Part shown: positions 10,421 through 37,190 of the stretch, piece after piece
How the letters are laid out: each line of letters starts with the position of its first letter
Numbering within the stretch: position 1 is the stretch's first letter
From: an uncultured Erythrobacter sp.
Lineage (GTDB): Bacteria > Pseudomonadota > Alphaproteobacteria > Sphingomonadales > Sphingomonadaceae
Length of the DNA: 64,000 nt
Direction of reading: 5' to 3'
Assembly: GCA_947499505.1 (NCBI GenBank)
Contig: CANMOQ010000001.1
Coordinates: forward strand, 42,037 to 106,036
Made by a program: the position numbers and the translations under genes
Notes under the pieces: generated by a model
What the model was told of the DNA's origin: nothing
Seen by the model: the letters and a program-made list of their open reading frames with translations, nothing else
Databases searched by the model: none

Positions 10421-10447
10421 GGCTCTAGGACACGCGGGAGACATTAC

Positions 10448-11584: not shown

Positions 11585-11607
11585 AGCGCGCTGCCTTAGC
11601 CGACAAA

Positions 11608-11650
11608 GAAAAGGGGCTCTACGCAGCAGTGCAGAGCCCCTTTTCCCGTT
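11608..11650. terminator. Bidirectional hairpin terminator between convergent genes
   Basis: AAAGGGGCTCT (11610-11620), a 12-nt loop, AGAGCCCCTTTT (11633-11644). A-run on one side and T-run on the other. Confidence 0.75.
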
Positions 11651-11665
11651 TGGTTTAGGTTTCTC

Positions 11666-21600: not shown

Positions 21601-24600
21601 ATGGCGGCACAGTGTCGCAAGACTTCGTTTGGACCGTCACCAACCCGGCACCAACCGCCGTCAATGACAACGCGAGCGTCGATGAAGACAGCAGTGTCAA
21701 TGTCGATGTGCTCGGCAATGACAATGATCCTGATGGCGATCCGCTGACCGTCACCAGCGCAACCGCGCCAAATGGCACTGTGGTGATCGAGGCTGATGGC
21801 ACGCTGACTTACACGCCAAATCCTGATTTCAACGGCGAAGACACGATCACTTACACGATCGATGATGGCAATGGCGGCACCTCTACCGCCGCAGTTATCG
21901 TCACCGTCAATCCGATCAATGATGATCCGGTTGCGGTCGATGATGCGGTCACCACCGATGAAGACACGCCGGTTACCATCGGCGTGCTGGGCAATGACAG
22001 CGATGTTGATGGCGATGATCTGACCGTCACGACTGCAACCTCACCTGATGGCACGGTTACGATCAATCCAGATGGCACGTTGGAGTTTGTGCCTGATCCG
22101 AACTTCAACGGCACGACGACAATCTCTTACGAGATTTCGGACGGCAATGGCGGCACAGCGACTGCGACGGTCACCGTTACGGTCAACCCGATCAACGATC
22201 CGCCGGTTGCGAACCCTGATGCGGCGACCACTGATGAAGACACGCCGGTTAATGTACCTCTGATCGGTAATGACACCGATGCTGATGGTGACGCACTGAC
22301 CGTGACCGCTGCAACAGCGGTCAATGGCACTGTCGTAATTAACCCAGATGGTAGCGTTGACTACACGCCGAACCCGGACTTTAACGGCACAGATACAATC
22401 ACTTACACCATAAGTGATGGCAATGGCGGGTTCTCAACCTCGACCGCAACCATCACGGTGAACCCGGTTAACGATGATCCGGTGGCGGCCCCAATCGCGC
22501 CGCAAACCAATGATGATAGCACGCCTGTCACGCTCGATATCAGCGGCAATTTCTCTGACGTTGACGGCGATGATCTGACGTTCAGCGCCACCGGTCTGCC
22601 GCCCGGCCTCAGCATTGATGCCAATGGCAATATCACAGGCACACTTGATCCAGACGCCTCGCAAGGCGGCCCGGCGGGTGACGGGGTGTACGAAGTCACA
22701 GTGACAGCCGATGATGGCAATGGTGGCACGGTCGATACGACCTTCATTTGGACGGTGAACAACCCACCGCCAGAGGCCGTGGATGACACCGCGACGACCG
22801 ATGAAGACACGCCAGTCAACATTCCTGTGCTCGCCAATGATAGCGATCCGGATGGCGATCCGCTGACCGTGACGGCGGCTGATGCGGGCAATGGCACGGT
22901 TGTGATCGAGGCGGATGGCACGGTCACCTACACGCCGAATGAAGACTTCAACGGCACGGATACGATCACCTACACCATCAGCGATGGCAATGGTGGAACC
23001 TCCACCGCGACCGTGACTGTCACGGTTGATCCGGTGAACGATGATCCGGTTGTCACGCCGATTGCGCCGCAAGATAACGTCGACAGCGCGGACGTGTCGC
23101 TGCCAACAGCGGGCAATTTCAGCGATGTTGACGGCGATACGCTGACCTTTAGCGCTACCGGCCTGCCAGCGGGCCTCTCGATCGACCCCAACACGGGCGA
23201 GATCACCGGCACAATTGCTGCGGATGCAAGCCAAGGCGGTCCGGCGGGTGACGGTATCTACTCCGTCACCGTCACGGCGGACGATGGCAATGGCGGCACG
23301 GTCGATACGACCTTCACCTGGACCGTCACCAACCCGCCGCCAGAGGCGGTGGACGATGCGGCAACGACTGACGAAGACACGCCGGTCAATATTCCGGTGC
23401 TCGCCAATGATAATGACCCAGATGGCGATCCGCTGACGGTTACCTCGGCAACCGCGCCAAATGGAACGGTTGTGATCGAGGCGGATGGCACGGTCACCTA
23501 TACGCCGAATGAAGACTTTAACGGCACCGATACAATCACCTACACCATCAGTGATGGCAATGGCGGCACCTCGACGGCGACTGTCACCGTAACGGTTGAT
23601 CCGGTGAACGACGATCCGGTGGCTGACACGCCGCTGGCCAACCTTGCCAATATCGATAGCGCGACCGTCAATGTTCCGGTCGCCGGTAACTTCAGCGATG
23701 TCGATGGCGATGGCCTGACGTTTGGTGCGACAGGCCTGCCTCCAGGTCTCATTATTGATGCGGCTGGTAATATCACCGGCACCATCGATCCCGACGCCTC
23801 GCAAGGCGGGCCAGCGGGTGATGGCATTTACACCGTCAGCGTGACAGCGGATGATGGCAATGGCGGCACGGTAACCAGCAGTTTTGCCTGGACCGTCACC
23901 AACCCGCCGCCAGTGGCCACGGATGATACCGCAACCACGCCAGAGGACACGCCGGTCAATATCGATGTGCTGGCGAACGACAATGATCCCGATGGCGATG
24001 CGCTCACGGTGACATCGGCAATCGCGCCAAACGGTACGGTCGTAATCGAAGCCGATGGCACGGTTACCTACACGCCGAATGAAGACTTCAACGGCACGGA
24101 TACGATTACCTACACGATCAGCGATGGGGAGGGCGGCACCACCACGGCGACCGTCACTGTGACAGTTGATCCGGTCAATGACGACCCGGTCGCTGACCCG
24201 CAGCTGACCAATCAGACCGACGATGACGCCGATGTCATCTCGCTCGATGTGTCTGGCAATTTCAGCGATGTTGATGGTGATACGCTCACCTTCACGGCGA
24301 CCGGCCTGCCGGGCGGACTGTCGATTGACGCCAATGGTGTGATCACTGGCACGCTGGATGCGGATGCATCGCAGGGCGGGCCGAACAGCGATGGACTCTA
24401 CACCGTCACCGTCACGGCCGATGATGGCAACGGCGGCACGACCACATCAACCTTCGTGTGGACCGTGAACAACCCACCGCCGCTTGCTGCGCCTGATACG
24501 GCCAGCACGACGGAAGACATACCGGTCACTGTCGATGTGCTGGCCAATGACAATGATCCAGACGGCGATGCGCTGACTGTGACGGAGGCGAACGCCGCCA

Positions 24601-27600
24601 ATGGCAGCGTTTTGATCAATGCCGACGGCACGATCACTTACACGCCGGATGCAAACTTCAACGGCACGGATACGGTGATCTACACCATCAGCGATGGTGA
24701 GGGCGGTACCTCGACCTCGACCGTGACGATCACTGTTGGCGCGGTAAATGACGATCCAGAAACAATTGGTCTGCCAGATCTCACCGATGGCAATAACGAG
24801 TTGATCGGTGTTCCGCTCGCCCCGGCGTTTAGCGATGCAGAAGGCGACACGCTTACCTTCTCAGCGACAGGCCTACCGGATGGTCTGTCGATTGACCCGG
24901 CCACAGGCGAAGTTACTGGCACTACGACGGGCACAGCCTCAAGTGGAGGGCCGCTGAGCGATGGTGTCTACACCGTCACAGTCACTGCTGACGATGGCAA
25001 TGGCGGAAGCGTAAGCACGACCTTCACCTGGACGATTAACAACGAGCCGCCAACGGCGATCGACGATAACTTCGTCGGTACGGAAGACACGCCACAAGTG
25101 CTCGACGTGCTGGCGAACGATATTGATCCTGATGCCGATCCGATGACTCCAATCGTTATCATCGATGCGCAGGCGACCAATGGCACCGCTGTGGTCAATG
25201 CGGATGGCACGATCACTTTCACGCCGGACCCTGACTTTAACGGCACGGCGACTGTCACTTACACGATCGAAGATGCGAACGGCGATCCAGCGACAGCAAT
25301 CGCGACCATCGTTATCGCGCCAGAAAACGATGCTCCTGATGCGACACCGCTGCCCGACCGCGGCGATGAGGACGGCGATGCTGTTTCCATCGATGCCGGC
25401 GTATTGTTCTCTGACATCGAAGGCGACACGCTGACGTTCAGCGCGACTGATCTTCCAGCGGGCCTGACGATTGATCCTGGTACTGGCATTATCAGCGGGA
25501 CGATTGATCCCGATGCCAGCCAAGTGAACAATGGCGTCTATCAGACCACCATTACCGCTGATGATGGCAATGGCGGCACGACCGATGTGGCTTTTGTCTG
25601 GACGGTGACCAACCCTGGCCCGACGGCCGCGGATGACACGGCCTCGACTGCTGAAGACACGCCAATCCCGTCGATTGATGTACTCGGCAATGATAATGAC
25701 CCGGATGGCGATGCGCTGACCGTGGTGTCTGCCAGCGCACCAAACGGCACAGTTGTCATCAATGCTGACGGCACTTTGGCCTACACGCCGGATCCAGACT
25801 TTAACGGCACCGACACGATCACCTATCAGATCACTGATGGTCAGGGCGGCACGTCCACAGCCATAGTTACAGTGACGGTAGGCGCTGAAAATGACGATCC
25901 GACTGCGCCGCCGCTATCGGCCCTCATCAATGATGATGCCGATGTTGTTGCTTTGGATCTCGCGCCCGGCTTTGCCGATGTCGACGGTGATCCGCTAACG
26001 TTTACCGCGACTGGCCTACCGCCAGGCCTCACCATTGATGCCGCTGGCAATGTCACCGGAACTATCGATCCGGATGCTTCACAGGGCGGGCCGAACGGCG
26101 ATGGCATCTACGAAGTCACCGTCACCGCTGATGATGGCAATGGTGGTACGGTGGATGCGGTATTCACCTGGACCGTTGGCAACCCAGCGCCGCTCGCGGT
26201 GGATGACACGGCGATCACCGATGAGGACACGCCGGTCAATATCCCCGTTCTGGCCAATGACAATGATCCAGACGGCGATCCGCTGAGCGTAACTCAGGCG
26301 AGCGCTGGTAATGGCACCGTTGTGATCGAAGCTGATGGCACGGTCACTTACACGCCGGATGAAGACTTCAACGGCACCGATACGATCACTTACGAGATTT
26401 CGGATGGCAATGGCGGCACCTCGACAGCGACGGTGACCGTAACCGTCAATCCGATCAATGATGATCCGGATGTAACGCCGCTCGCCCCGCGCGAGAATGT
26501 CGATAGCGCAGTCGTGAACGTGCCGACCGCTGGCAATTTCAGCGATGTCGATGGCGACACTCTGACATTTGATGCCACGGGCCTGCCAACTGGCCTCACG
26601 ATTGATCCAGCCACGGGCGTGATCTCTGGCACGATTGATCCATCTGCCTCCATTGGTGGACCGAATGGTGATGGCACTTACGAAGTCACTGTGACGGCTG
26701 ACGACGGCAATGGCGGTACCGTGTCCACCACCTTTAGCTGGACAGTGACCAATCCAGTGCCAGTGGCGGTGAACGACACTGCAACCACCACAGAAGACAC
26801 AGCGACCAATATCGATGTGCTGGCCAATGACAGCGATCCTGATGGCGATCCGCTGACCGTGGTTACTGCCTCTGCGGCGAACGGCACGGTCACGATCCTG
26901 CCCGATGGCACGATTGATTACACGCCGAACCCGGATTTCAACGGGACGGATACGATCTCTTACACGATCAGCGACGGCAATGGCGGCACGGCTTCGGCGC
27001 TCGTCACGGTCACCGTTGATCCAGAGAATGATCCACCAGTGGCCGTTAATGATACGACCACGACCGACGAAGACACGTCGGTTACAATCCCGGTCCTCTC
27101 CAATGACAGCGATGTTGATGGCGATGATTTGACGGTAACCGATGCGACCGCGCCAAACGGCACGGTTACGATCAACCCAGATGGCACGGTGACCTACACG
27201 CCGGATCCCGATTTCAACGGGACCGACACGATCACCTACACCATTGATGATGGCAATGGCGGCACCGACACTGCGACGATCACTGTCGTGGTTGCGCCGG
27301 TCAATGATGCGCCGATTGCGGCGCCTGACACTGCAGACACGGATGAGGACACACCGGTCACCATCCCTGTTCTCGCCAATGACAGCGATGTTGACGGCGA
27401 TCCGCTGACGGTCACCGATGCGACCTCGCCTGATGGCACGGTCACTATCAATCCGGATGGTACGATCACGTTTGAGCCTGATCCGAACTTCAACGGACCG
27501 GCCACCATCACCTACACCATCGATGATGGCATGGGCGGCACCGCAACCTCGACTGTTACGGTCAATGTTGCGCCGGTTAACGATCCGCCTGTTGCGGAAG

Positions 27601-29741
27601 ATGACACGGCAACAACCGACGAAGACACGTCGGTTACTGTTCCGGTACTCGCCAATGACAGCGACGCTGATGGCGATCCGCTGACCATTACGGAGGCGAC
27701 CGCGCCCAACGGTACGGTTGTGATCAACCCAGATGGCACGGTCACCTACACGCCGGATGAGAACTTCAACGGCACCGATGTGATCACCTACACCATCTCT
27801 GATGGCAATGGCGGGTTTGATACGGCCACGCTGACGGTCACGGTTGATCCGGTGAACGACGTGCCGGTGGCTCAGGATGACGCCGCGACTGGAACGGAAG
27901 ATGAGCCGCTCACCATTCCTGTGCTCGCCAATGACGGCGATGCTGACGGTGATCCGCTGACAGTTACAACGGCGACTTCGCCAGATGGCACGGTTACGAT
28001 CAACCCGGATGGCACGATCACCTTTGTGCCGAACCCCGACTTCAACGGGCCAACCACCATCACCTACACGATCGATGATGGCATGGGCGGCACAGCGACG
28101 GCGACAGTCACGGTCGATATTGTCGCCGTGAACGATCCGCCTGTGGGTGAGCCGGATACGGCTGTCACGGATGAAGACACGCCTATCACCATTCCGGTGC
28201 TCGCGAATGACAATGACCCGGATGGCGATCCGCTGACTGTTGTCTCGGCCAATGCGCCGAATGGCACGGTTACGATCAACCCAGATGGCACGATCACTTA
28301 CACGCCGAACCCGGACTTCAACGGCACCGATACGATCACCTATCAGGTGAGCGACGGCATGGGCGGCTTTGACACGGTGACGGCAACCGTCACGGTCAAT
28401 CCGGTCAATGATCCGCCGGTTGCGGGCAATGACGTCACCAGCGTGAATGAGGACAGCGAAGTCACCATCCCAGTGCTGGTCAACGACACTGATGCCGATG
28501 GCGATCCGCTGACGGTGACAACCGCAACCGCCACCAACGGTACGGTTACGATCAACCCTGATGGCACGATCACCTATGTGCCGAACCCCGATTTCTTCGG
28601 TCAGGATACGATCACTTACACGATCAGTGATGGCAATGGCGGCACGTCAACAGCGACCGTCGCGGTTGAGGTTATCAACACCAACGAGCCGCCGGTTGAT
28701 GAGCCTGAAGCTCTCAACGTAATCAGCGGCACCGACACGATCATTAATGTGCTCGACAATGCGACCGATCCAGATGGTGACCCTCTGGAAGTGGTGATCG
28801 CACTCGTCGACATTGGCGAAGTGGTGATCAATCCTGATGGCACGCTTACTTATAGCGCGCCAGCAGACTTCTTCGGCGAAGTGACGATCCGCTACTTCAT
28901 CTCTGATGGTCAAGGCGGCTTTGTGGAGAGCTTTGCCACGATCACCGTGGTTGAGGCTGCGGCTGATATCGGCTTCCTGATCGGCGAGGAGCCTGATCCA
29001 GGCATTCCTAATGCCTATCCGGTTGATCGAGTGCTGGACCAGAGCGACGCCTTTATCAGCACGCCGCTGATCATCCTCGATACGGTCAATGATTTCCGCT
29101 CGCTTGGCGGCATGGGCACGCTCAACGTCGATCAGCCATTGCTGAACGCAGTGAACGGCCTGCGCTCCTTGAACGGCATTGGCGGATTTGACGCCAATGG
29201 CAGCCCGATTGACGATGTGGTTGGCTATATCGATCACATCCGCGACCTGCGCTTTGGTGTGGACCGTCTGTTCGATCCGCGCTTTGGCGACTTCCTGCCA
29301 GAGGCGCTGACCGGCTTCTCCGTGCGGCAACTCGATACCGGCAGCGACCAGGTCATGATCGAGAGTATTTCGCGCGACCGTGTGGTCTATGTCGAAATGC
29401 GCGATATTGGCGCGGACGATGCCCCTCGGATCACCGAATATCAGCTGGTTACGCGCGATGGTGCGCCGCTGCCTGATTGGATCCGGATGGATGCTCGCGG
29501 TCTGGCGATCATTGAACGTCCCGTTGATGCAGAGACGCTCAGACTGGTTGTTCGCGCAATCCGGGCTGATGGCGAAGTGATTGAGATCCCTGTTGTTATT
29601 CAGGGCGCAACCGGTGAAATACAGCTGGATGAGGCGATTGCAGAAGCAGTGGCCAGGGCTGAAACACTTGATACGATGATGGCACGCGCCAGTGGCGAAG
29701 CCGATGACGAAGCAAGCAAACTGCTTGCAGCTTTTAGTTGA
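15636..29741 (+). CDS. Giant (4701 aa) repetitive cadherin-like / Ig-like adhesin-type surface protein
   Basis: Single uninterrupted 14,106-nt ORF. N-terminus has ALEPRMMFDGAG and no hydrophobic Sec leader. Contains a DUF4347-like domain, then about 25 modules of ~92 aa (DEDTPV..VLANDxDPDGDxLTV..NGTV..DGT.TYTPN.DFNGTDTITYTISDG.GG) interleaved with about 15 He_PIG-like modules (LTFSATGLPPGLSIDPxTGxIxGTI). The ~260-aa non-repetitive C-terminal domain has no GGxGxD nonapeptides. Confidence 0.95.
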   Translation: MTKKQAASRHILALEPRMMFDGAGVVTAITADIGPMAVAPGEYTFNEASVAPVNLDIRSDISSGIGDDVGSGLSAQPVGFLFGNRSEGSEALHPQFEFHDEVREGSTPRAIIDAMRDYRATAMYGVERALADGFFAEPSDDAVVAQSGEVPNDFIFIDTSVDNYEQLAEIWEGRGTIVFVDANSDGVDQVLTALAGASDVGAIHFVSHGEDGMFWLGDTRIDSAALTGELASAFASIGSKLSADGDILIYGCDVGNDAEGQALLNNLAAITGADIAASIDDTGSIARGGDWTLENRLGVVESASLVAREWGGLLAPTNISAPADSLTVRDGSGNIIATGGTGFGNAGGRSGDVGVGGTGTWVNVGTVNGQSISIRATVVSISAGDTVRFDRPTSGDDDPGFLLRSNGGPVATAEIRWDIFFTATGAPVEIDVSYTVADIDGVGGNTNSREFVVVDTDTLSSFQAANGSNVAFDTSVPGQVTASGTQNESSGVPSAARFNWLDTSSFTITYNIDPASGVPQAGFSHDGDLDFNLGTGGTTVSIPRLDLDNNNSTASGSAYEGTFVENGSAVGIVDRDVRITNPNGSVEGLTVTLTNAQTGDELLVNGSNAATGTLNGGISYTRTATEIILTGAANSAQYQNALRAITFQTAGERPDETPRTIDISFENAALNSNVATSTINVVEINDPPTAVNDAQITTDEDVPILNIDVLGNDFDGDGDPLTVISANASNGTVIINGDGTLAYVPNSNFSGTDTITYTISDGRGGTDTATVPIVIGPVNDNPTTNGNLPPQTNVDAQQGIFVNAASGFSDAEDPNNLTYSATGLPPGLSIDPNTGFITGNIDNSASQGGSGGIYNVVVTATDSGGLTAEQNFSWTVTNPAPQANNDGGSTLEDTPVTFDVLANDQDPDGDDISVVSASAPNGSVVINADGTITYTPNANFSGPETITYTISDGEGGTSTATVSLFVTAQNDDPVAVGSLPPQVNDDADAGISVQTAGGFADVDNANLVYSATGLPPGLSIDANTGEITGTIDNSASQGGVAGVYNVTITANDNVGGAPATQTFSWTVSNPAPTAANDTATTDEDTPVDIPVLANDNDPDGDDLSIVSATAPNGTVVVNADGTITYTPNADFNGTDTITYTISDGEGGTSQATVAVTVGAVNDPPVPVGALPAQTNLDADSGISLATAGGFADSDDTNLVYSAAGLPPGLSIDSATGEITGTIDNSASTGGTGGVYNVTVTATDPSGESADQDFSWTVTNPAPIAVDDTASTTEDTPVLIDVLPNDSDPDGDVLTVISAFSSVGQATLVGNQINFVPPANFNGTATITYTISDGEGGTSEATVTVTVAPENDDPDSTPIPPVDALDGDTVSVPVADAFSDVDGDTLTFSATDLPPGLTIDPDTGVISGTITPDASQTNGGVYTGTITVDDGNGGTTTETITFNVANPPPEAVNDNASTDEDVAVTIDVLANDSDPDVDPLTVTSADAQNGTTVINADGTVTYTPNPGFNGTDTITYEISDGNGGTSIATVTVVVNDINDTPEISGSIGDQTNLDAQEINLPVAGAFSDPDGDALSFTAIGLPAGLTIDPDTGVISGTIDNSASQVNGGSYSITVTADDGRGGTISQDFTWTVANPAPIAANDAVTTDEDTPVNVDVLANDVDPDGDDLTVIEAEAGNGTVTINADGTLVYTPNPDFNGTDTIVYTIDDGEGGVSSASVDVTVTPVNDGPTTVGLPNQSGEDSQTVSIPTASAFNDVDGDVLTFSAEGLPPALSIDPDTGVISGTLASDSSQNGPFVVTVTATDPSGEEVSTTFIYSVQNVPPIAQNDTATTPEDTPVTIAVLANDSDPDGDALTITSASADNGTVVVNADGTVTFTPDPDFNGEANVTYTVSDGQGGVATATLTVTVTAENDDPAAVDIPDVTNEDNQSVSIATESFFSDVDGDDLTITAAGLPPGLSIDPTTGIISGTLDIDASQGSPYTVTLTADDGNGGTVSQDFVWTVTNPAPTAVNDNASVDEDSSVNVDVLGNDNDPDGDPLTVTSATAPNGTVVIEADGTLTYTPNPDFNGEDTITYTIDDGNGGTSTAAVIVTVNPINDDPVAVDDAVTTDEDTPVTIGVLGNDSDVDGDDLTVTTATSPDGTVTINPDGTLEFVPDPNFNGTTTISYEISDGNGGTATATVTVTVNPINDPPVANPDAATTDEDTPVNVPLIGNDTDADGDALTVTAATAVNGTVVINPDGSVDYTPNPDFNGTDTITYTISDGNGGFSTSTATITVNPVNDDPVAAPIAPQTNDDSTPVTLDISGNFSDVDGDDLTFSATGLPPGLSIDANGNITGTLDPDASQGGPAGDGVYEVTVTADDGNGGTVDTTFIWTVNNPPPEAVDDTATTDEDTPVNIPVLANDSDPDGDPLTVTAADAGNGTVVIEADGTVTYTPNEDFNGTDTITYTISDGNGGTSTATVTVTVDPVNDDPVVTPIAPQDNVDSADVSLPTAGNFSDVDGDTLTFSATGLPAGLSIDPNTGEITGTIAADASQGGPAGDGIYSVTVTADDGNGGTVDTTFTWTVTNPPPEAVDDAATTDEDTPVNIPVLANDNDPDGDPLTVTSATAPNGTVVIEADGTVTYTPNEDFNGTDTITYTISDGNGGTSTATVTVTVDPVNDDPVADTPLANLANIDSATVNVPVAGNFSDVDGDGLTFGATGLPPGLIIDAAGNITGTIDPDASQGGPAGDGIYTVSVTADDGNGGTVTSSFAWTVTNPPPVATDDTATTPEDTPVNIDVLANDNDPDGDALTVTSAIAPNGTVVIEADGTVTYTPNEDFNGTDTITYTISDGEGGTTTATVTVTVDPVNDDPVADPQLTNQTDDDADVISLDVSGNFSDVDGDTLTFTATGLPGGLSIDANGVITGTLDADASQGGPNSDGLYTVTVTADDGNGGTTTSTFVWTVNNPPPLAAPDTASTTEDIPVTVDVLANDNDPDGDALTVTEANAANGSVLINADGTITYTPDANFNGTDTVIYTISDGEGGTSTSTVTITVGAVNDDPETIGLPDLTDGNNELIGVPLAPAFSDAEGDTLTFSATGLPDGLSIDPATGEVTGTTTGTASSGGPLSDGVYTVTVTADDGNGGSVSTTFTWTINNEPPTAIDDNFVGTEDTPQVLDVLANDIDPDADPMTPIVIIDAQATNGTAVVNADGTITFTPDPDFNGTATVTYTIEDANGDPATAIATIVIAPENDAPDATPLPDRGDEDGDAVSIDAGVLFSDIEGDTLTFSATDLPAGLTIDPGTGIISGTIDPDASQVNNGVYQTTITADDGNGGTTDVAFVWTVTNPGPTAADDTASTAEDTPIPSIDVLGNDNDPDGDALTVVSASAPNGTVVINADGTLAYTPDPDFNGTDTITYQITDGQGGTSTAIVTVTVGAENDDPTAPPLSALINDDADVVALDLAPGFADVDGDPLTFTATGLPPGLTIDAAGNVTGTIDPDASQGGPNGDGIYEVTVTADDGNGGTVDAVFTWTVGNPAPLAVDDTAITDEDTPVNIPVLANDNDPDGDPLSVTQASAGNGTVVIEADGTVTYTPDEDFNGTDTITYEISDGNGGTSTATVTVTVNPINDDPDVTPLAPRENVDSAVVNVPTAGNFSDVDGDTLTFDATGLPTGLTIDPATGVISGTIDPSASIGGPNGDGTYEVTVTADDGNGGTVSTTFSWTVTNPVPVAVNDTATTTEDTATNIDVLANDSDPDGDPLTVVTASAANGTVTILPDGTIDYTPNPDFNGTDTISYTISDGNGGTASALVTVTVDPENDPPVAVNDTTTTDEDTSVTIPVLSNDSDVDGDDLTVTDATAPNGTVTINPDGTVTYTPDPDFNGTDTITYTIDDGNGGTDTATITVVVAPVNDAPIAAPDTADTDEDTPVTIPVLANDSDVDGDPLTVTDATSPDGTVTINPDGTITFEPDPNFNGPATITYTIDDGMGGTATSTVTVNVAPVNDPPVAEDDTATTDEDTSVTVPVLANDSDADGDPLTITEATAPNGTVVINPDGTVTYTPDENFNGTDVITYTISDGNGGFDTATLTVTVDPVNDVPVAQDDAATGTEDEPLTIPVLANDGDADGDPLTVTTATSPDGTVTINPDGTITFVPNPDFNGPTTITYTIDDGMGGTATATVTVDIVAVNDPPVGEPDTAVTDEDTPITIPVLANDNDPDGDPLTVVSANAPNGTVTINPDGTITYTPNPDFNGTDTITYQVSDGMGGFDTVTATVTVNPVNDPPVAGNDVTSVNEDSEVTIPVLVNDTDADGDPLTVTTATATNGTVTINPDGTITYVPNPDFFGQDTITYTISDGNGGTSTATVAVEVINTNEPPVDEPEALNVISGTDTIINVLDNATDPDGDPLEVVIALVDIGEVVINPDGTLTYSAPADFFGEVTIRYFISDGQGGFVESFATITVVEAAADIGFLIGEEPDPGIPNAYPVDRVLDQSDAFISTPLIILDTVNDFRSLGGMGTLNVDQPLLNAVNGLRSLNGIGGFDANGSPIDDVVGYIDHIRDLRFGVDRLFDPRFGDFLPEALTGFSVRQLDTGSDQVMIESISRDRVVYVEMRDIGADDAPRITEYQLVTRDGAPLPDWIRMDARGLAIIERPVDAETLRLVVRAIRADGEVIEIPVVIQGATGEIQLDEAIAEAVARAETLDTMMARASGEADDEASKLLAAFS
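16090..16520 (+). other. DUF4347-like N-terminal domain of the giant protein
   Basis: FIFIDTSVDNYEQLAE...VFVDANSDGVDQVLTALAG...IHFVSHGEDGMFWLGDT...ILIYGCDVGNDAEGQALLNNLAAITGADIAASIDDTG. Recognised from memory of this family, not searched. Confidence 0.55.
17700..28960 (+). repeat. Coding tandem-module array: (C-H)x7, C, C, (C-H)x8, Cx8. C is a cadherin-like ~92-aa module; H is a He_PIG-like ~97-aa module
   Basis: Counted by reading the translation. Each C module has an acidic DxDxDGD putative Ca-binding motif. Modules are delimited by (V/I)ND(D/P)P or NP(A/P)P junctions. Confidence 0.8.
22772..24481 (+). repeat. Three consecutive 570-nt C+H units with the highest mutual similarity
   Basis: Unit starts at 22772, 23342 and 23912 (next at 24482), exactly 570 nt apart. 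The protein is nearly identical across the C modules, but the DNA differs at many synonymous third positions (for example acctacacg/acctatacg, gacttcaac/gactttaac). Confidence 0.8.
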
Positions 29742-29766
29742 AAATAGAACGGATGAAGGTGAGCCA

Positions 29767-31263
29767 ATGAATAAGGGACTTGCACTGGTAAGCGTATCGA
29801 CACTCTTCCTGGGTGCCTGCGCAACTGTACCCGAGCCGTTCACGGCGGCAGAATTGAACGAGACGGCAGCCAGCAATTTTGAGCGGGTTGATGTGGATCA
29901 GGAGCCGGTTACGGCGCCGATTGACCTTTACGAGGCGATGGCCCGCTCGCTGAAATACAATCTCGACTACAAGGTTGAGCTCATGGAGATTGCGCTGCGC
30001 GACCGCGAGCTTGATCTTCAGCGTTACGATATGCTGCCGCAATTGGTTGCCAGCGCTGGCTATGCCGGACGCAACAACTTCTCTGGCGCGAGCTCGCTCT
30101 CGTTGATCACCCGGCGGCAATCGCTGGAGCCATCAACCTCGCAGGAACGCGACCTGTTTACCGCAGATCTCGCACTCAGCTGGGACGTGCTTGATTTCGG
30201 CCTGTCTTATGTCCGGGCCAAGCAAGGCGCGGATGAAGTTCTGATCGCGCAGGAGCGCCGCCGCAAGGTTGCCAACCGCGTGATTGAAGATGTGCGGTCC
30301 TCCTATTGGCGTGCGGTCAGCGCCGAACGCCTGCTGACCAAGCTGCAAGAGCTGGAAGATTCGGTCACCACAACGCTGCAAAGTTCAGAGCGTTTGGCCG
30401 AGCGGCGTCTGTCTGCTCCGCTTACCGCGCTGACTTATCAGCGTGAACTGCTGGAAATTCAGGCGCAAATTCGCAAGCTTCAGCGCGAGCTGGTGGTTGC
30501 AAAGGCGCAATTGGCCGCGCTCATGAACCTGCGCCCTGGCACTGAGTTCTCGCTCGCTTTGCCAGATCGCACCAACACTTTGCCTGCGGTCAATTACCAA
30601 GGCGAAGACATGATGATGACGGCGCTGCTCAATCGTCCAGAGCTGCGCGAGGTTAGCTATCGCCAACGGATCAATTCGCGCGAATTGGATGCGGCATTGC
30701 TTTCAGCTCTGCCGAGCTTCCGCGGTGTCCTTGGCGTCAACGTCGATTCCAATGACTTCCTGTTTAACAATGACTGGATGAACTACGGCGCCCGCGCCAG
30801 TTGGAACGTCCTCAACCTGTTCCGTTTGCCAGCGCATAAGAAGGCCGTGCGCGCACAGGAAGATCTGCTGGAGCAGCGCGAATTGGCGCTGACCATGGCG
30901 GTGATGACACAGGTTCATGTCTCGCGTGCACGCTTTAGCCATCTGAGCGAAGAACTCGATACGGCATCACGCCAGATGAAGGTGCAGGACAAGATCCTCG
31001 ATCAAATCCGTTCCGGCCATAAGGCTGGCGCAATGAGCCGCCAAACGCTGCTGCGTGAAGAGATGAACACGCTCGCCGCAGAGGTGAAATATGACATCGC
31101 CTATGCAGAGGCGCAAAACGCCTATGCTGGTCTGTTTGCCTCCATGGGCATCGACGAGTTTAGTCCAAACGTGACCGGACGCGAAGATGTCGCTACTCTG
31201 CGCGCATCACTGGAGCAAATGTGGCAGGACCGCGAAGCTGCGGTAAAGCTGTCTGGAAGTTAA
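29767..31263 (+). CDS. TolC-family outer-membrane efflux lipoprotein
   Basis: ORF track start is 29692. I prefer ATG 29767 (MNKGLALVSVSTLFLGAC, with lipobox), preceded by GAAGGTGAG, 25 nt after the giant gene stop. Two OEP-like coiled-coil halves are recognisable. Confidence 0.85.
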   Translation: MNKGLALVSVSTLFLGACATVPEPFTAAELNETAASNFERVDVDQEPVTAPIDLYEAMARSLKYNLDYKVELMEIALRDRELDLQRYDMLPQLVASAGYAGRNNFSGASSLSLITRRQSLEPSTSQERDLFTADLALSWDVLDFGLSYVRAKQGADEVLIAQERRRKVANRVIEDVRSSYWRAVSAERLLTKLQELEDSVTTTLQSSERLAERRLSAPLTALTYQRELLEIQAQIRKLQRELVVAKAQLAALMNLRPGTEFSLALPDRTNTLPAVNYQGEDMMMTALLNRPELREVSYRQRINSRELDAALLSALPSFRGVLGVNVDSNDFLFNNDWMNYGARASWNVLNLFRLPAHKKAVRAQEDLLEQRELALTMAVMTQVHVSRARFSHLSEELDTASRQMKVQDKILDQIRSGHKAGAMSRQTLLREEMNTLAAEVKYDIAYAEAQNAYAGLFASMGIDEFSPNVTGREDVATLRASLEQMWQDREAAVKLSGS

Positions 31264-31266
31264 AAC

Positions 31267-32262
31267 ATGAGTGACATTGAGCAGGTGGACGAGGGATCAC
31301 CGCCCGCAGAAGATGGAAACCGCAAGCTGTTGATCGGCGGCGGCGTGCTTGCTGTGGCTGCAGCCATTGCAGGGGTCGTCTACGCGGGCAGCGGCGACAC
31401 GCAGTGGTCGGATAATGCGACCGTGGCCTCGGCAGAGCAGGCGGAACTGGCAGCGGGCGAGGGCAGCGATGCCGCCCCGGAACCTGAGCCAGAACCGGTG
31501 CTAGAGGCGCGCGGCGTGATCGCGGCAAAGAACGAGAGCACAGTGGCCTCGCGCATGACCGCGCGGATCACCTCTATGCCGTACCGCGAGGGGCGCAGCT
31601 TTGGCAAAGGCGCTTTGCTTGCACGGTTTGATTGCTCCACCATTCAGGCTGAATTGAACGCGGCCCGCGCCGCAACCGCCGCCTATCAAAAGACCTATGA
31701 GACCAACGTTGAACTCGACAGTTATGAGGCTGTTGGCAAAAATGAAGTGGCGGTCTCGCGCGCCAATCTTGGCCGGGCGCAGGCAGAGGCCAATGCGGTC
31801 TCGGCCCAGCTGCGCGACTGCGCGGTCTATGCGCCATTCGCTGGCACTGTGGTGGAAGAGATCGCGAGTCGCGGCGAAGTGGCCGCCAGTGGTCAGCCGC
31901 TGCTGCGCATTCAAAGCGGCGGCGATCTGGAAGCCGATCTGATCGTTCCCAGCAATTGGCTGACCTGGCTTGAGCCAGGGGCGAAGTTTGACTTCGTGAT
32001 TGACGAGACAGGCGCTAGCATTACCGGCGTCGTCACCCGGTTGGGCGCATCGGTTGACCCGGTCAGTAAGACGATCCGCATCGGAGCCAATATTGATCGC
32101 GGCGATGCTTTGGTCCTGCCCGGGATGAGCGGCACGGCGACGTTCGAAAAGCCAAGCGAGGCACCTGCGGAGACAGAAGAAGCGGGCGAAGGCGCGGCTG
32201 AAGGCGAAGCGAGCGGAGCGGCCACGGAAGGGGCTGAAGCCGATGGCAGCCAGCCAACCTGA
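31267..32262 (+). CDS. Membrane-fusion protein (HlyD/RND-adaptor type) 1
   Basis: Starts 3 nt after the upstream stop. N-terminal TM anchor LLIGGGVLAVAAAIAGVVY. Lipoyl-like halves (GVIAAKNESTVASRMTARITSM; VYAPFAGTVVEEIASRGEVAASGQPLLRI) flank a short coiled coil. Acidic Glu/Ala/Gly C-terminal tail. Confidence 0.8.
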   Translation: MSDIEQVDEGSPPAEDGNRKLLIGGGVLAVAAAIAGVVYAGSGDTQWSDNATVASAEQAELAAGEGSDAAPEPEPEPVLEARGVIAAKNESTVASRMTARITSMPYREGRSFGKGALLARFDCSTIQAELNAARAATAAYQKTYETNVELDSYEAVGKNEVAVSRANLGRAQAEANAVSAQLRDCAVYAPFAGTVVEEIASRGEVAASGQPLLRIQSGGDLEADLIVPSNWLTWLEPGAKFDFVIDETGASITGVVTRLGASVDPVSKTIRIGANIDRGDALVLPGMSGTATFEKPSEAPAETEEAGEGAAEGEASGAATEGAEADGSQPT

Positions 32263-33634
32263 TCCGATTGAGGCCGCTGCGCCCAAAGTCAGCTCTCTGG
32301 CCCCCAAAAGCGCGGCGCCTGATGCGGCAAAGCTCGCCGCGCTTCTGCAATTCGAGGCGGATATCCGCCGCCTAGAAACCGTCGAAGAGCTGCAATATTT
32401 TGTCGCCAATGAGGCGCGTCAGGTTTTGCCTTACGGCCAGATGTTTGTGCTGCGCCAGGCGCGGATCGGGCAGGGGTTTGAGGTGCAATGCGCCTCGTCC
32501 CTGGCGACCGTTGACCGCAATGCGCCGCTGATCCACGCGCTGGAAAAGGCGATTGAGCGCCTCGCTCAGGATCACGGGCTAGAACAGCCCAACGCTTTTG
32601 ACGCGGCTAGCCTGCGCGCGGATGAGGCCTTTGACCAATATCCCTATTCTCAGCTGCATTGGCAGCCTCTGCTCGGCAAGGCCGGCGAAGTTTTCGGCGC
32701 AATGCTGTTTGCCCGCGATGAGCCATTGCGCGAGGGCGAGAAGTACCGCGCGGCCCGCATTGCCGAGACGGCGGCGCATTCCTGGCTGGCGCTGAGCGGC
32801 GGCAAGCCTGTTCGCCGCCTGCCCGTGATCGACAGCAAGAAGAAGAAATGGATCGCGGTCGCTATCGCCGTCATCCTGCTGTTCCCAGTGCGCCTGACCG
32901 CTTTGGCTCCGGCTGAGATCGTTGCTGAGCGGCCCTACATTGTAGCTGCGCCATTTTCGGGCCGGATTGCCTCGATCGAAGTCCCTCCGAATGCTCCGGT
33001 GAAGGCTGGTCAAGTGCTGCTGCGCTTTGACGACGTGCGGCTCGATAATGAGCTGGAGCTGGCCGAGGAAAGGCTGGCTGTTGCTCGCTCGCGGCTCGAA
33101 CGCTCCACCAGCTCTGCCTTTAGTGACGAGGACGAGACCTCCGATATTGCGATCATGCGGGCCGAGGTTGAGGTCGCGCAGGCCGAATATGATTATGCGA
33201 AAGAGCTCGCCGGACAATCCGCGATCACCGCTCAGCGCGACGGCATGGCTCTGTTCAGCGATCGCCGCGATTGGGAAGGGCGCGCGGTCAATGTTGGCGA
33301 TCCCATCATGCAGGTCGTCAATCCAGACGAGGTGATGATCCGCATCGATTTGCCCGCGGCAGAGCAGATGTCGCTGGAAAAGGGCGCCAAGATCAAGATG
33401 TGGCTCGATTCCCAGCCATTGTGGGCCATCGACGGCCTACTGGAGACGGCGAGCTATCAGGCCCGCCAGACGCCCGATGGAACGCTGGCCTTTGCGCTCA
33501 CCGCGCGTCTGGATGGCGATAACCCTCGGATTGGATCGCGCGGCACGGCTCAGGTCTATGGCCGCTGGGTGCCGTTTGCTTACTCGCTGCTGCGCCGTCC
33601 AATCGCGGCCCTGCGCCAATTTGTCGGACTATGA
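32243..33634 (+). CDS. Membrane-fusion protein 2 with an N-terminal cytoplasmic GAF-like domain
   Basis: 20-nt overlap with the upstream gene. About 190 cytoplasmic residues (LETVEELQYFVANEARQVLPYGQMFVLR...VFGAMLFARDEPL; GAF assignment is low confidence). TM segment KKKWIAVAIAVILLFPV. Then a HlyD-like lipoyl/coiled-coil/barrel region (IVAAPFSGRIASIEVPPNAPVKAGQVLLRFD). Confidence 0.75.
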   Translation: MAASQPDPIEAAAPKVSSLAPKSAAPDAAKLAALLQFEADIRRLETVEELQYFVANEARQVLPYGQMFVLRQARIGQGFEVQCASSLATVDRNAPLIHALEKAIERLAQDHGLEQPNAFDAASLRADEAFDQYPYSQLHWQPLLGKAGEVFGAMLFARDEPLREGEKYRAARIAETAAHSWLALSGGKPVRRLPVIDSKKKKWIAVAIAVILLFPVRLTALAPAEIVAERPYIVAAPFSGRIASIEVPPNAPVKAGQVLLRFDDVRLDNELELAEERLAVARSRLERSTSSAFSDEDETSDIAIMRAEVEVAQAEYDYAKELAGQSAITAQRDGMALFSDRRDWEGRAVNVGDPIMQVVNPDEVMIRIDLPAAEQMSLEKGAKIKMWLDSQPLWAIDGLLETASYQARQTPDGTLAFALTARLDGDNPRIGSRGTAQVYGRWVPFAYSLLRRPIAALRQFVGL

Positions 33635-35790
33635 GCTCAGCGGCGATCCCCATTGATTTGCCGGAGATACCAAAGCCGCCTCCGCTGCCCGCCTTGAGGC
33701 AGGAATTGCGGATCGAACCGGGCGCGCCGCTGGTCAATGGAGCGCCCAGTTGGAACCTGTTTGACCCGGTCCGCCACGCGTTCTTTCAGCTGGGTCAGAT
33801 CGAGTTTGTGATCTTCTCGCATTGGGCGAGCGGCAATCTGGCGAGGATTGGTGATGATCTGGAACAGCGCGGCCTCACCAGCGACGAATCCAATGATGCG
33901 TTCAATGCCGTCGTAGAATTCGCCGCGACCAATGGCCTTACGGTTGGCCCAGTGGGGCGGGACAGTGTCTCTGCCTTTATGGAGCAGCGCGCCAGCAACA
34001 AAAAAGCGGCGTGGAAGTGGTTGCTCGACAATTATCTCTTTATTCGCATTCCCTTGGTGAAGCCTGCGCGCTTTCTGGAGCGCACGATTGAGCACGTCCG
34101 TCCGCTGTGGTCGCTTTACAGCTTGGTGTTCTTCGCTGCGCTCGCGCTCACCAGCCTGTTTCTGGTTTCGCGCCAGTGGGATGCCTTCATGGCGGCGTTT
34201 CTCTATTTCTTCAGCTGGCAGGGCCTGATCGCTTACGGCGCAGGCTTGTTTTTTGTGAAGATCCTGCACGAACTCGGGCACGCCTACACCGCCACCCGCT
34301 ATGGCTGCCGCGTGCCGACCATGGGGGTCAGCTTTCTGGTTATGATGCCGGTGCTCTACACCGATACGACTGCGGCCTGGCGGCTGACATCGCGCAAGAA
34401 ACGCCTGGCGATTGACTGCGCGGGCGTGGCGGCGGAGCTGATGGTCGCCAGCATTGCGACGATGCTGTGGGTGATCCTGCCCGATGGCACCGCGCGCAGC
34501 GTCGCCTTTATCCTGGCGACGACCAGCTGGATCATGAGCCTCGCGATCAATCTCAATCCGTTCATGCGCTTCGATGGCTATTACGTGCTGTCGGACTTTC
34601 TCAACGTGCCCAATTTACAGCCGCGCGCCTTTGCTCTGGGCAAGTGGAAGATGCGCGAAATCCTGTTCGGGCTGGGTGTCGATGCCCCGGAAGAAGTGCC
34701 GCGCAAGCTGCGGCGCGGGATGATCATCTATGCCTATGCGACCTGGATTTACCGCCTGTTCCTGTTCACCGGGATTGCGATCCTGGTCTATAATCTGTTT
34801 TTCCAACCGCTCGGCCTGATCCTGGCGATTGTGGAGCTGGCGGTGTTTATCGGCCGTCCGGTTTTTGCCGAAATGCGCGAGTGGGCTGGTCTGCGCAAAT
34901 CGATCACGAGCACCCGCCGGGGCAAGGCGTGGTTTTGGATATTGGGAGGGTTGCTGCTGGCTGCGTTCCTGCCGCTCGACCGGCATGTGACCGGCTATGC
35001 CGTCCTGACGCCGGTTGGCGCTGCGCCGATTGTCTCTGGAGAGCCCGCGCGCGTGGTCAAAGTGATTGCGCAGAATGGCCAGACGGTCACCGCAGGTGAT
35101 CCGATCATAGAGCTCGATGCGCCGGAACTGGCAGCCGACGCCGCCTCTACCAAAGTGCGGATCGCTCAGCTTGAGCTCCAAATGGGCCGCTCTATGGCCG
35201 ACAGCCGGGACCGCTCCAACCGCGCTGTTCTGGAGCGAGAGCTGGCGCGGGAGCGCGGCAAGCTGGCTGGACTGGAACGACGCGCTGACAAGCTGATCCT
35301 GCGCGCGCCGGGGCCGGGCACGGTCTCCGGCCTGATGCCCGATATGCATCCCGGACGCTGGATAGGCGGCGAAGAAGTGATCGCCCATGTTGTCACGCCG
35401 AGCGATTATGACGTTCAGGCCTATGTGCCAGAGGACGAGATTTGGCGCCTCAGCGATGGCGCGCTGGGCACATTTGTCGCTGCCGACGCGGGCGGGCCGT
35501 CCCGCTCTGCCAAGCTGGTGGAGATGTCGTCCAGCGCGATTGCGAGGCTAGAGCAGCCCATCCTCGCCTCCACCAATGGTGGGCCCATTGCTGTCGATAA
35601 AGACGGTGAGGAGCTGGCCCCGCGAGAGGCGCTGTACCGCATTCGGATGATCGCCGAAAAAGGCGCGCTCAGCGGCGCAGATTATCAGATCCAGCTGGTG
35701 CCGGGATCAGTTCAAATCCGCACCGAAGGGCGCTCTTTTGCGGAGTGGGCGGCGACCGAGCTGGCGCGCATGTTCCGCCGCATTTTCTGA
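33631..35790 (+). CDS. Site-2-protease (peptidase M50) membrane metalloprotease fused to a C-terminal HlyD-type membrane-fusion domain
   Basis: ATGA overlap with the upstream gene. HELGH at 34267-34281 within a TM region. Second S2P motif NLNPFMRFDG at 34549-34578. C-terminal lipoyl/coiled-coil region (PIVSGEPARVVKVIAQNGQTVTAGDPIIELDAPEL...IAQLELQM...). About 170 N-terminal residues of unknown fold. Confidence 0.8.
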   Translation: MSSAAIPIDLPEIPKPPPLPALRQELRIEPGAPLVNGAPSWNLFDPVRHAFFQLGQIEFVIFSHWASGNLARIGDDLEQRGLTSDESNDAFNAVVEFAATNGLTVGPVGRDSVSAFMEQRASNKKAAWKWLLDNYLFIRIPLVKPARFLERTIEHVRPLWSLYSLVFFAALALTSLFLVSRQWDAFMAAFLYFFSWQGLIAYGAGLFFVKILHELGHAYTATRYGCRVPTMGVSFLVMMPVLYTDTTAAWRLTSRKKRLAIDCAGVAAELMVASIATMLWVILPDGTARSVAFILATTSWIMSLAINLNPFMRFDGYYVLSDFLNVPNLQPRAFALGKWKMREILFGLGVDAPEEVPRKLRRGMIIYAYATWIYRLFLFTGIAILVYNLFFQPLGLILAIVELAVFIGRPVFAEMREWAGLRKSITSTRRGKAWFWILGGLLLAAFLPLDRHVTGYAVLTPVGAAPIVSGEPARVVKVIAQNGQTVTAGDPIIELDAPELAADAASTKVRIAQLELQMGRSMADSRDRSNRAVLERELARERGKLAGLERRADKLILRAPGPGTVSGLMPDMHPGRWIGGEEVIAHVVTPSDYDVQAYVPEDEIWRLSDGALGTFVAADAGGPSRSAKLVEMSSSAIARLEQPILASTNGGPIAVDKDGEELAPREALYRIRMIAEKGALSGADYQIQLVPGSVQIRTEGRSFAEWAATELARMFRRIF

Positions 35791-35874: not shown

Positions 35875-36797
<923 letters not shown>

Positions 36798-36818
36798 TTG
36801 GTTGGAAAGGAGCCGGCC

Positions 36819-37190
36819 ATGAGCCGAAACATTCGCATACTTACAGTAGATGACAGCCCCAGCATGCGCGCCTTGCTGCGCCATTCTCTGACCGAACAGG
36901 GGGTTGAGGTGGAACAGGCCGAAGATGGCGAGATTGCACTGTCGTGGCTGGCCTCGAACGAGGTCGATTTGGTGATCACTGATATCAACATGCCGAACCT
37001 CGATGGATTTGGCCTGATTGAGGAGTTGCGCGCCAGCGCCCGCCATGCGGAGCGGCCCATTCTGGTGCTCAGCACTGAAAGCTCAGCGGAAAAGAAGCAG
37101 CGGGCCCGCAATGCCGGGGCGACCGGTTGGATCGTAAAACCATTCGACGCGGAAAAGCTGGCTGTTGCCGTGCGCCGCGTGATCCATTGA
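36819..37190 (+). CDS. cheY: CheY-like single-domain response regulator
   Basis: ATG 36819 after GGAAAGGAG. Receiver residues in LTVDDS, DLVITDINMPNLDG, LSTES and VKPF. Confidence 0.88.
   Translation: MSRNIRILTVDDSPSMRALLRHSLTEQGVEVEQAEDGEIALSWLASNEVDLVITDINMPNLDGFGLIEELRASARHAERPILVLSTESSAEKKQRARNAGATGWIVKPFDAEKLAVAVRRVIH

Follow-up and report, generated by a model that had tools for sequence, protein, structure and literature searches.

The 64,000-nt stretch of DNA analysed here, hereafter the window, comes from an uncultured Erythrobacter sp. (GenBank assembly GCA_947499505.1, contig CANMOQ010000001.1, positions 42,037 to 106,036 of the forward strand). It carries five + strand genes that abut or overlap one another and encode, in this order, a giant repeat adhesin, a TolC-like protein, a short and a long membrane-fusion protein (MFP), and a 719-aa fusion protein (33631..35790). 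The last of these joins a predicted PqqD-like recognition element for ribosomally synthesized and post-translationally modified peptides (RiPP recognition element, RRE), a metalloprotease of the M50/site-2 protease (S2P) type and an MFP in one chain, as delineated by the open reading frame (ORF) call, Pfam and NCBIfam matches, a family alignment and an AlphaFold2 model.

Results

The protease core and its family

The initial annotation of this ORF pointed to the motifs HELGH and NLNPFMRFDG, embedded in hydrophobic segments, as the catalytic core of an M50 protease. The zinc site of M50 proteases is formed by HExxH together with NxxPxxxxDG. Translation confirms both motifs: the zinc-binding/catalytic HELGH occupies aa 213-217 (34267..34281, + strand) and NLNPFMRFDG, with the third zinc ligand D315, occupies aa 307-316 (34549..34578, + strand). 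Pfam places Peptidase_M50 (PF02163) at aa 205-314 with 30.3 bits against a cut-off of 27.2, the match spanning only profile positions 5-106 of 221. Among the NCBIfam models, NF041824, for the daptide RiPP intramembrane metalloprotease MpaP, matches best (153 bits, aa 111-422) but falls short of its equivalog cut-off of 300 bits; a weaker match, to YydH/LiaK, also stays under its family cut-off, and NCBIfam release 20 holds no dedicated model for the RRE-M50-MFP fusion.

The protein belongs to a large family. A search of 1.84 billion cluster representatives (50%-identity clusters) returned 12,434 relatives at E<=1e-3 and 3,478 clusters at E<=1e-30; nearly all of the best 150 are 690-750 aa long and align with the fusion protein end to end. 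When it was aligned with 150 representatives of 50%-identity clusters (n = 151), H213, E214 and H217 were each retained in 150 sequences, as was P310, while N307, D315 and Y317 were present in all 151. Given this conservation, the motif pair is evidently no chance match. The suggestion that the protease is active is upheld as far as computation reaches: the catalytic His, Glu and Asp are near-invariant, and orthologues lacking them are not common (150/151 and 151/151 kept). Relatives bear generic database names such as 'HlyD family efflux transporter periplasmic adaptor subunit', 'site-2 protease family protein' or 'putative peptide zinc metalloprotease protein'. Since it is abundant in databases under such labels, the architecture is uncharacterised rather than unseen. 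A contig search with the fusion protein alone recovered only three near-identical Erythrobacter loci.

A predicted RRE at the N-terminus

About 170 N-terminal residues had been left without a recognised family, with an RRE or PqqD-like domain offered as a candidate. Aa 1-170 match nothing in Pfam, NCBIfam or PDB sequence-profile scans, and Pfam PqqD (PF05402) finds no match there even at E<=10. A separate model of aa 1-140 (pLDDT 85.5) was searched against the PDB with Foldseek, and the top 9 matches are all RREs: TbiB1 with leader (5v1u/5v1v), lasso-peptide B1 with leader (6jx3) and CteB (5wgg/5why). These have probabilities of 0.96-1.0, against <=0.14 for the next matches, and target TM-scores of 0.72-0.73 for the stand-alone B1 RREs. 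The predicted fold consists of strands 27-30, 41-45 and 50-54 followed by helices 56-63 (56-65 in the separate model), 70-79 and 84-100; the domain covers about aa 20-105 (33688..33945, + strand).

Profile comparison leads to the same assignment. Plasmid-borne paralogues found by tblastn, equal in length and domain order and annotated 'PqqD family protein', share 28% identity with the fusion protein over aa 134-665 (E 8e-48) and pass the PqqD threshold of Pfam at their N-terminal end (aa 37-101, 28.7 bits). In hhalign, the first 130 residues of the fusion family align with the N-termini of these paralogues over 107 columns (probability 80%, E 1.4e-5). The RRE is thus visible only by profile-profile and fold comparison. 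As the PDB fold matches and the alignment to PqqD-bearing paralogues agree, we assign RRE, M50 and MFP to one chain, with the N-terminus modelled as a PqqD-like RRE.

Membrane topology and the periplasmic adaptor

The full-length AlphaFold2 model (100-sequence alignment, pLDDT 92.9, pTM 0.82) shows a seven-helix membrane domain with the M50 active site at aa 146-446 (34066..34968, + strand), a placement also based on the count of Lys and Arg (K/R) residues in loops and on the NF041824 match. The helices span aa 146-181, 196-223, 255-282, 287-307, 358-389, 392-420 and 429-446; a conserved strand, YLFIRIPL (aa 135-142), lies ahead of the first, and a beta-hairpin is modelled between membrane helices at aa 231-244. 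HELGH falls within helix 196-223, N307 closes helix 287-307 and D315 opens the next one, so the placement of both motifs at membrane segments is borne out. Aa 258-310 are also hydrophobic on the Kyte-Doolittle scale. K/R residues number 0 in the short outside loops and 2, 5 and 2 in the inside loops. Because these counts favour the inside loops, the N-terminal domain and the active site are predicted to be cytoplasmic and the MFP periplasmic; the predicted topology is thus seven transmembrane helices with the N-terminus in and the adaptor out.

The C-terminal part, aa 450-719 (34978..35787, + strand), is modelled as a periplasmic MFP domain with lipoyl half-domains, an alpha-hairpin (498-553) and a beta-barrel. 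Pfam reports HlyD_3 at aa 557-636 (E 2.2e-7), profile matches include HlyD 8dck (E 1.7e-14), MacA, ZneB and EmrA, and Foldseek returns MacA, MexA, EmrA and ZneB at E about 1e-10. By these comparisons, the roughly 270 aa that were originally called MFP-like represent a genuine HlyD/MacA-like adaptor. Its proposed tethering to an outer-membrane channel agrees with the TolC-family gene in the same operon and with the periplasmic placement of the MFP.

The module in other bacteria

The module is conserved as five genes, namely giant adhesin, TolC-like lipoprotein, short MFP, long MFP (MFPL) and RRE-M50-MFP, in Alpha-, Beta- and Gammaproteobacteria. The same five are found in Sphingopyxis YR583 and a metagenome contig, in Variovorax paradoxus (with an adhesin of 16,239 aa), in Azospirillum and Burkholderia anthina, and, in permuted order, in Eleftheria. 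They are also present on the E. coli IncF plasmid NZ_CP081743, where the adhesin has 4,459 aa and the set lies between IS5 and IS1 copies. Of 5,426 complete E. coli genomes, 24 carry this version, usually on a plasmid, and the module is present on Citrobacter, Hafnia and Kosakonia plasmids as well. It moves as a unit on plasmids, flanked by insertion sequences and carrying its own TolC.

A metagenome scan yielded 80 loci at 35-63% identity, for which counts were restricted to loci with enough flanking sequence. MFPL lies directly upstream of the M50-MFP gene in 66 of 69 loci (61 strictly and 5 with an overlap of a few bases), the short MFP is upstream in 50 of 58, and TolC is within the locus in 35 of the 44 with enough upstream sequence. 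Nearly all loci of at least 15 kb contain an ORF of at least 1,000 aa, and a giant gene stands beside the module in 52 + 5 loci. All-versus-all clustering of about 830 ORFs from about 90 loci revealed only three conserved families beside RRE-M50-MFP: the MFP paralogues, the giant repeat protein and TolC. Behind these come clusters of 8-9 loci each, which consist of antisense shadow ORFs.

The giant adhesin and its N-terminal tag

The candidate substrate in the window, identified by its Pfam repeats and its position beside the module, is the giant adhesin (15636..29741, + strand; 4701 aa). It contains 34 Big_9, 27 Cadherin_5 and 15 He_PIG stretches as well as tandem-95 repeats; no HemolysinCabind/RTX match (Pfam) and no Sec-type signal peptide were found in it. 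After a basic MTKKQAASRH it carries the leader motif LEPRMMFDGA at aa 14-23 (15675..15704, + strand), which is covered by NCBIfam NF012209, LEPR-8K (LEPR-XLL), at aa 10-30 with 17.6 bits against a cut-off of 17.

Giant proteins of the module vary in repeat type and length; what they have in common is the first ~20-60 residues. In these, two hydrophobic residues connect a K/R-rich stretch to LE[PSAQT]R-x-x-[FYL]-D-[AG]-[AS], as in the window (...RHILALEPRMMFDGAG), in E. coli (...HRFALESRQLFDGAA) and in Variovorax (...AMALEARYMFDAAA). The E. coli and Variovorax N-termini are more divergent and are missed by the NF012209 model, with the motif present; the giant proteins of Azospirillum, Burkholderia and Eleftheria carry a similar tag. 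The tag, LExRxxFDxA, was found in 26 of 26 N-termini examined. A regular-expression scan of 3.1 million six-frame residues from all loci gave 32 matches, none away from the heads of long ORFs and each at most 121 residues from an upstream stop. Judging from this pairing, the adhesin N-terminus is the likely substrate of RRE-M50-MFP.

Behind the leader lies a DUF4347 domain (aa 155-306; 16098..16553, + strand; Pfam PF14252, E 4.6e-44). It keeps SHG...YGC about 45 residues apart (His 23/26, Gly 26/26, Cys 25/26) and matches Peptidase_C80 (E 0.088) and the caspase large subunit (E 1) weakly. It may represent a cysteine protease domain akin to those of clan CD, perhaps one that processes itself. 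DUF4347 also occurs in loci L009, L010 and L017-L019 of our collection and in 20 metagenome loci; chain G of PDB entry 9qpe is a DUF4347 protein. We ran the test in reverse for four DUF4347 proteins on long contigs. An M50(-MFP) gene lies within 10 kb in all three informative cases; the fourth contig ends before an informative distance is reached, and its protein carries the LEPR tag.

DUF4347 itself was considered as the signal that pairs with the module and was rejected, for it occurs with other N-termini too. A DUF4347 protein on a Phaeobacter plasmid, with no module nearby, begins at DUF4347 and has no LEPR tag; one from Acaryochloris, near an inverse-autotransporter gene, has a classical signal peptide and a motif like that of two-partner secretion (TPS), again with no LEPR tag; some further ones bear an ESPR at the N-terminus, and DUF4347 is found in P. 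aeruginosa PA0256, a putative Hcp-dependent effector of the type VI secretion system. As DUF4347 proteins without the module have no LEPR, it appears that the N-terminal tag tracks the export route, LEPR going with the M50-MFP/TolC module.

A conserved C-terminal signal like that of type I secretion systems (T1SSs) was not borne out either. Some adhesins end in a weak xLLAAF-like tail: at the C-termini in the window (29640-29741) and in L004, L006, L008 and L013, though not in all taxa, an acidic stretch is followed by xLLAAF or LAAAL, as in EASKLLAAFS, ETEQLAAAL and AADLLAALAS.

Other genes of the operon and its surroundings

The outer-membrane factor (29692..31263, + strand) is of the TolC family (Pfam OEP, E 1e-37, 2 stretches). 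Its ORF as called opens at a GTG that overlaps the adhesin stop. The internal M26 (nt 29767) is probably the true start, since it yields a typical lipoprotein signal, MNKGLALVSVSTLFLGAC (...LFLGAC; lipobox read from the translation), for which reason the factor is probably lipidated, as in NodT/OprM. The short MFP that follows (31267..32262, + strand; 331 aa) matches HlyD_3 at E 5.4e-15 and TIGR01730 RND_mfp at 101.7 bits, over the cut-off. MFPL (32243..33634, + strand; 463 aa; HlyD_3, E 1.8e-12) is composed of a ~190-aa cytoplasmic domain, one transmembrane helix and an MFP part, and its stop overlaps the start of the RRE-M50-MFP gene (ATGA). The conserved aa 1-195 of MFPL (32243-32830) align weakly with the GAF domain of a GAF-MFP from a variant module (hhalign probability 38%, E 3.4e-4); this cytoplasmic domain could act as a sensor or dock the substrate.

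Scans for promoters and terminators at either end of the operon did not rise above chance. Right after the module, at 35878-36231, a CheB methylesterase is represented by its C-terminal half only (positions 94-174 of the 174 in the Pfam profile), with stop codons ahead of this partial cheB and with cheD, cheY and cheW downstream. The arrangement may reflect insertion of the ~20-kb adhesin module into a che cluster, or else decay of cheB. Long antisense ORFs at 28647-29876(-), 33637-34281(-), 34615-35388(-) and 35970-37046(-) lie over real genes and are shadow ORFs of GC-rich coding sequence. The window further contains four paralogous genes of the tryptophan-halogenase family (964-4067, 55684-57201, 61308-62828) beside TonB-dependent receptors (4205-7369, 58411-61185), a pairing typical of polysaccharide/substrate uptake loci in Sphingomonadales; these genes are unrelated to the RRE-M50-MFP finding.

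Discussion

Our data present RRE-M50-MFP as a three-part inner-membrane machine with a cytoplasmic RRE, a seven-helix M50 domain facing the cytoplasm and a periplasmic MFP. Together with the two other MFPs and the TolC-like lipoprotein it would work as machinery dedicated to the adhesin, whose gene comes first in the operon. RREs bind RiPP leaders by strand addition, and the RRE of the fusion protein would probably bind the adhesin leader (the basic stretch and LALEPRMMFDGA) in the same manner. The leader would then be handed to the adjacent, cytoplasm-facing M50 site and cut there, and the polypeptide would enter the envelope-spanning MFP/TolC duct N-terminus first. The evidence leans slightly towards this account, with capture of the LEPR leader assigned to the RRE, its cleavage to the M50 site and the export duct to the three MFPs and TolC. 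We offer a wider proposal more tentatively, as a possibility that falls somewhat short of probable: the genes for the TolC-like lipoprotein, the two MFPs and RRE-M50-MFP would together encode a hitherto unrecognised, ABC-independent secretion pathway in Gram-negative bacteria, with a cleavable LEPR leader at the N-terminus of the cargo as the address and an RRE as its reader. If true, the leader-recognition principle of RiPPs has been borrowed for the export of giant proteins of 2,000 to 16,000 residues.

Several known systems share parts of this arrangement. The T1SSs for giant adhesins (LapA/LapEBC, SiiE/SiiCDF, BapA/BapBCD) likewise combine in one operon a giant repeat adhesin, a TolC-family channel and HlyD-family adaptor(s), their substrate lacks a Sec signal, and a trans-envelope duct is implied. 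They differ in that the module has no ATP-binding cassette (ABC) transporter, which leaves MFP and outer-membrane factor only; in that it has three different MFPs instead of one, with an RRE-M50 protease as the inner-membrane partner; and in that its signal is N-terminal (LEPR), whereas T1SSs use a C-terminal signal with RTX repeats. Tripartite pumps also pair TolC with an MFP, but the module lacks a transporter of the resistance-nodulation-division (RND) or major facilitator superfamily (MFS) type. The peptidase-containing ABC transporters (CvaB/CvaA/TolC for colicin V, ComA, PCAT1) couple a leader-recognising protease to export, read an N-terminal leader and, in Gram-negative bacteria, work with HlyD and TolC partners. 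Their protease is, however, a C39 cysteine peptidase and not an intramembrane zinc enzyme with an RRE, they include the ABC domain that the module lacks, and their cargo is a peptide, compared to thousands of residues here. The proposed pairing of leader recognition with cleavage also has a parallel in lasso-peptide biosynthesis, where B1 provides the RRE and B2 the protease. With site-2 proteases such as RseP, SpoIVFB and MjS2P the fusion protein shares HExxH and NxxPxxxxDG in membrane helices and a beta-hairpin beside the active site; unlike them it has no PDZ or CBS domains, it has extra helices and is fused to RRE and MFP, and no regulatory substrate is evident.

A number of observations weigh against our interpretation. 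The Pfam score for PF02163 is barely over the gathering threshold. Profile comparison of the S2P core with solved S2Ps (3b4r, E 2.5e-4; RseP 7w6x, E 7e-3) covers only the HExxH helix (aa 193-223 for 3b4r, which is MjS2P), and the Foldseek list for the full-length model is saturated by MFP matches. In classical MFPs TolC docking relies on the RLS motif (Rx3Lx6S) at the hairpin tip. R510-L514-S521 of the fusion protein fits this motif, but it is not kept across the family, where the three positions are conserved in 40%, 53% and <20% of sequences (R520 in 80%). On the Magnetospirillum plasmid pMSR-1, what stands ahead of the module is a protein of 492 aa with ELWxxDGT repeats (L014, 6490-7968) that has no LEPR tag. 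An upstream tagged extension of this protein is ruled out by stop codons just upstream; it may be a truncated remnant. A LEPR-XLL giant of Vibrio is reported to have C-terminal RTX domains (PMC10868602), so some LEPR proteins may be exported by a classical T1SS, with the tag serving otherwise.

No energy-transducing component is encoded in the module, and we know of no precedent for a protein of 4701 aa crossing the inner membrane without a motor. The large ORFs of the window that were scanned include no ABC, RND or MFS transporter, and no such family is conserved among the clustered ORFs. Variant modules hint at a SecA-type motor able to take part in export: L011, from Methylosinus (9835-11751, where the gene is annotated 'prepilin peptidase'), L099 (12387-14258) and L100 (6262-8316) contain genes for SecA-like ATPases of 620-680 aa (SecA_DEAD, PP_bind, P-loop_SecA), accompanied by a DUF3467 protein in L011 and by GAF-MFP in L011 and L100. 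Housekeeping SecA, the proton-motive force and extracellular folding acting as a ratchet are candidate energy sources.

In giant T1SS adhesins such as LapA, a retention module at the N-terminus keeps the protein on the cell until a protease (LapG, of the LapG/LapD system) frees it by a cut near an Ala-Ala site, and the five-gene module can be read along these lines. The LEPR peptide and DUF4347 would then be an anchor or plug held by the RRE, and the M50 cut would regulate surface release; export would proceed by the MFP/TolC duct or by another route, cleavage being no obligatory step in it. The Ala-rich segment after the tag (FDAAAAATAA) recalls the LapA/LapG site, a folded DUF4347 domain stands behind the leader, the possibly GAF-like cytoplasmic domain of MFPL could gate cleavage, and the Vibrio giant combines LEPR-XLL with an RTX region. 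LapG, however, is a soluble periplasmic cysteine protease, whereas the enzyme here is an integral-membrane metalloenzyme facing the cytoplasm; because the RRE and the active site are placed in the cytoplasm, a tether would have to re-cross the inner membrane. The window adhesin has neither RTX repeats nor a recognisable T1SS signal, no ABC exporter is encoded, and DUF4347, since it is found with other secretion routes, looks like cargo and not like a route-specific plug. We regard retention and release of this kind as unlikely, though worth keeping in mind.

A Sec-coupled, two-step route seems to us somewhat less likely again. It would treat the basic, LEPR and Ala-rich N-terminus as an atypical signal handled by SecA, either a dedicated SecA-like ATPase, as in the variants, or the housekeeping SecA in the window; M50 would serve as signal peptidase or signal-peptide peptidase, and MFP/TolC would carry out the step from periplasm to outside. 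S2P enzymes such as RseP degrade signal peptides, and in Gram-positive bacteria there are giant adhesins that leave the cell by accessory SecA2 systems. The SecA-like genes inside variant modules fit as well, but they are present in just 3 of about 90 loci. Moreover, charged E, R and D stand in the middle of the would-be hydrophobic core, the N-termini have no AxA site, and a Sec signal needs no RRE.

The remaining explanations fit the conserved gene content poorly. That the module matures and exports a small RiPP-like peptide or bacteriocin, as YydH or the daptide MpaP would with an exporter, the adhesin being a mere neighbour, is suggested by the N-terminal RRE and by the nearest named families. 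RRE-dependent leader peptidases (lasso B1 RRE with B2 protease; MpaP; YydH/LiaK) do combine an RRE fold with a leader protease, and an M50-like membrane domain of this group gives the best sequence match (NF041824, 153 bits). Yet the score remains under the family cut-offs, the protein is MFP-fused and TolC-linked, and the presumed leader heads a giant adhesin that is kept with the module, tag included, across classes. The module genes overlap or abut and so leave no space for a precursor gene; upstream of the adhesin only random short ORFs occupy the intergenic region. No modifying enzyme lies nearby, clustering brought out no extra conserved family, and we consider this explanation very improbable. 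Least probable, by a little, is regulated intramembrane proteolysis, the classical signalling role of S2P/RseP, in which the S2P domain would cut an anti-sigma-type membrane regulator upon duct engagement: no sigma, anti-sigma or other regulator gene is conserved in the module, and the RRE and the conserved LEPR tag would be left unexplained.

The architecture was initially thought to be functionally undescribed, and our searches agree. In the literature searched, many subscription papers lying outside it, we found no description of the fusion, of the module or of the function of LEPR-XLL or DUF4347; LEPR-XLL appears there as an annotation label only. The module is probably the mark of an as yet undescribed route by which giant surface proteins are processed and exported. 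Two orphan annotations gain a possible function from our proposal: the LEPR-XLL tag and the 715-aa proteins listed as 'HlyD family / site-2 protease family'.

Export of giant adhesins without an ABC motor would open a new chapter in secretion biology, and an RRE acting on a full-size protein instead of a RiPP precursor would widen the known role of this domain. The leader and module pair is a possible tool for surface display of very large proteins. The fusion family is large, with members in soil, marine and enteric Proteobacteria, among them some on plasmids of clinical and wastewater isolates of E. coli and Citrobacter. As it is widespread and plasmid-borne in enterics, the system lends itself to experiment and may be relevant to biofilm formation and colonisation.

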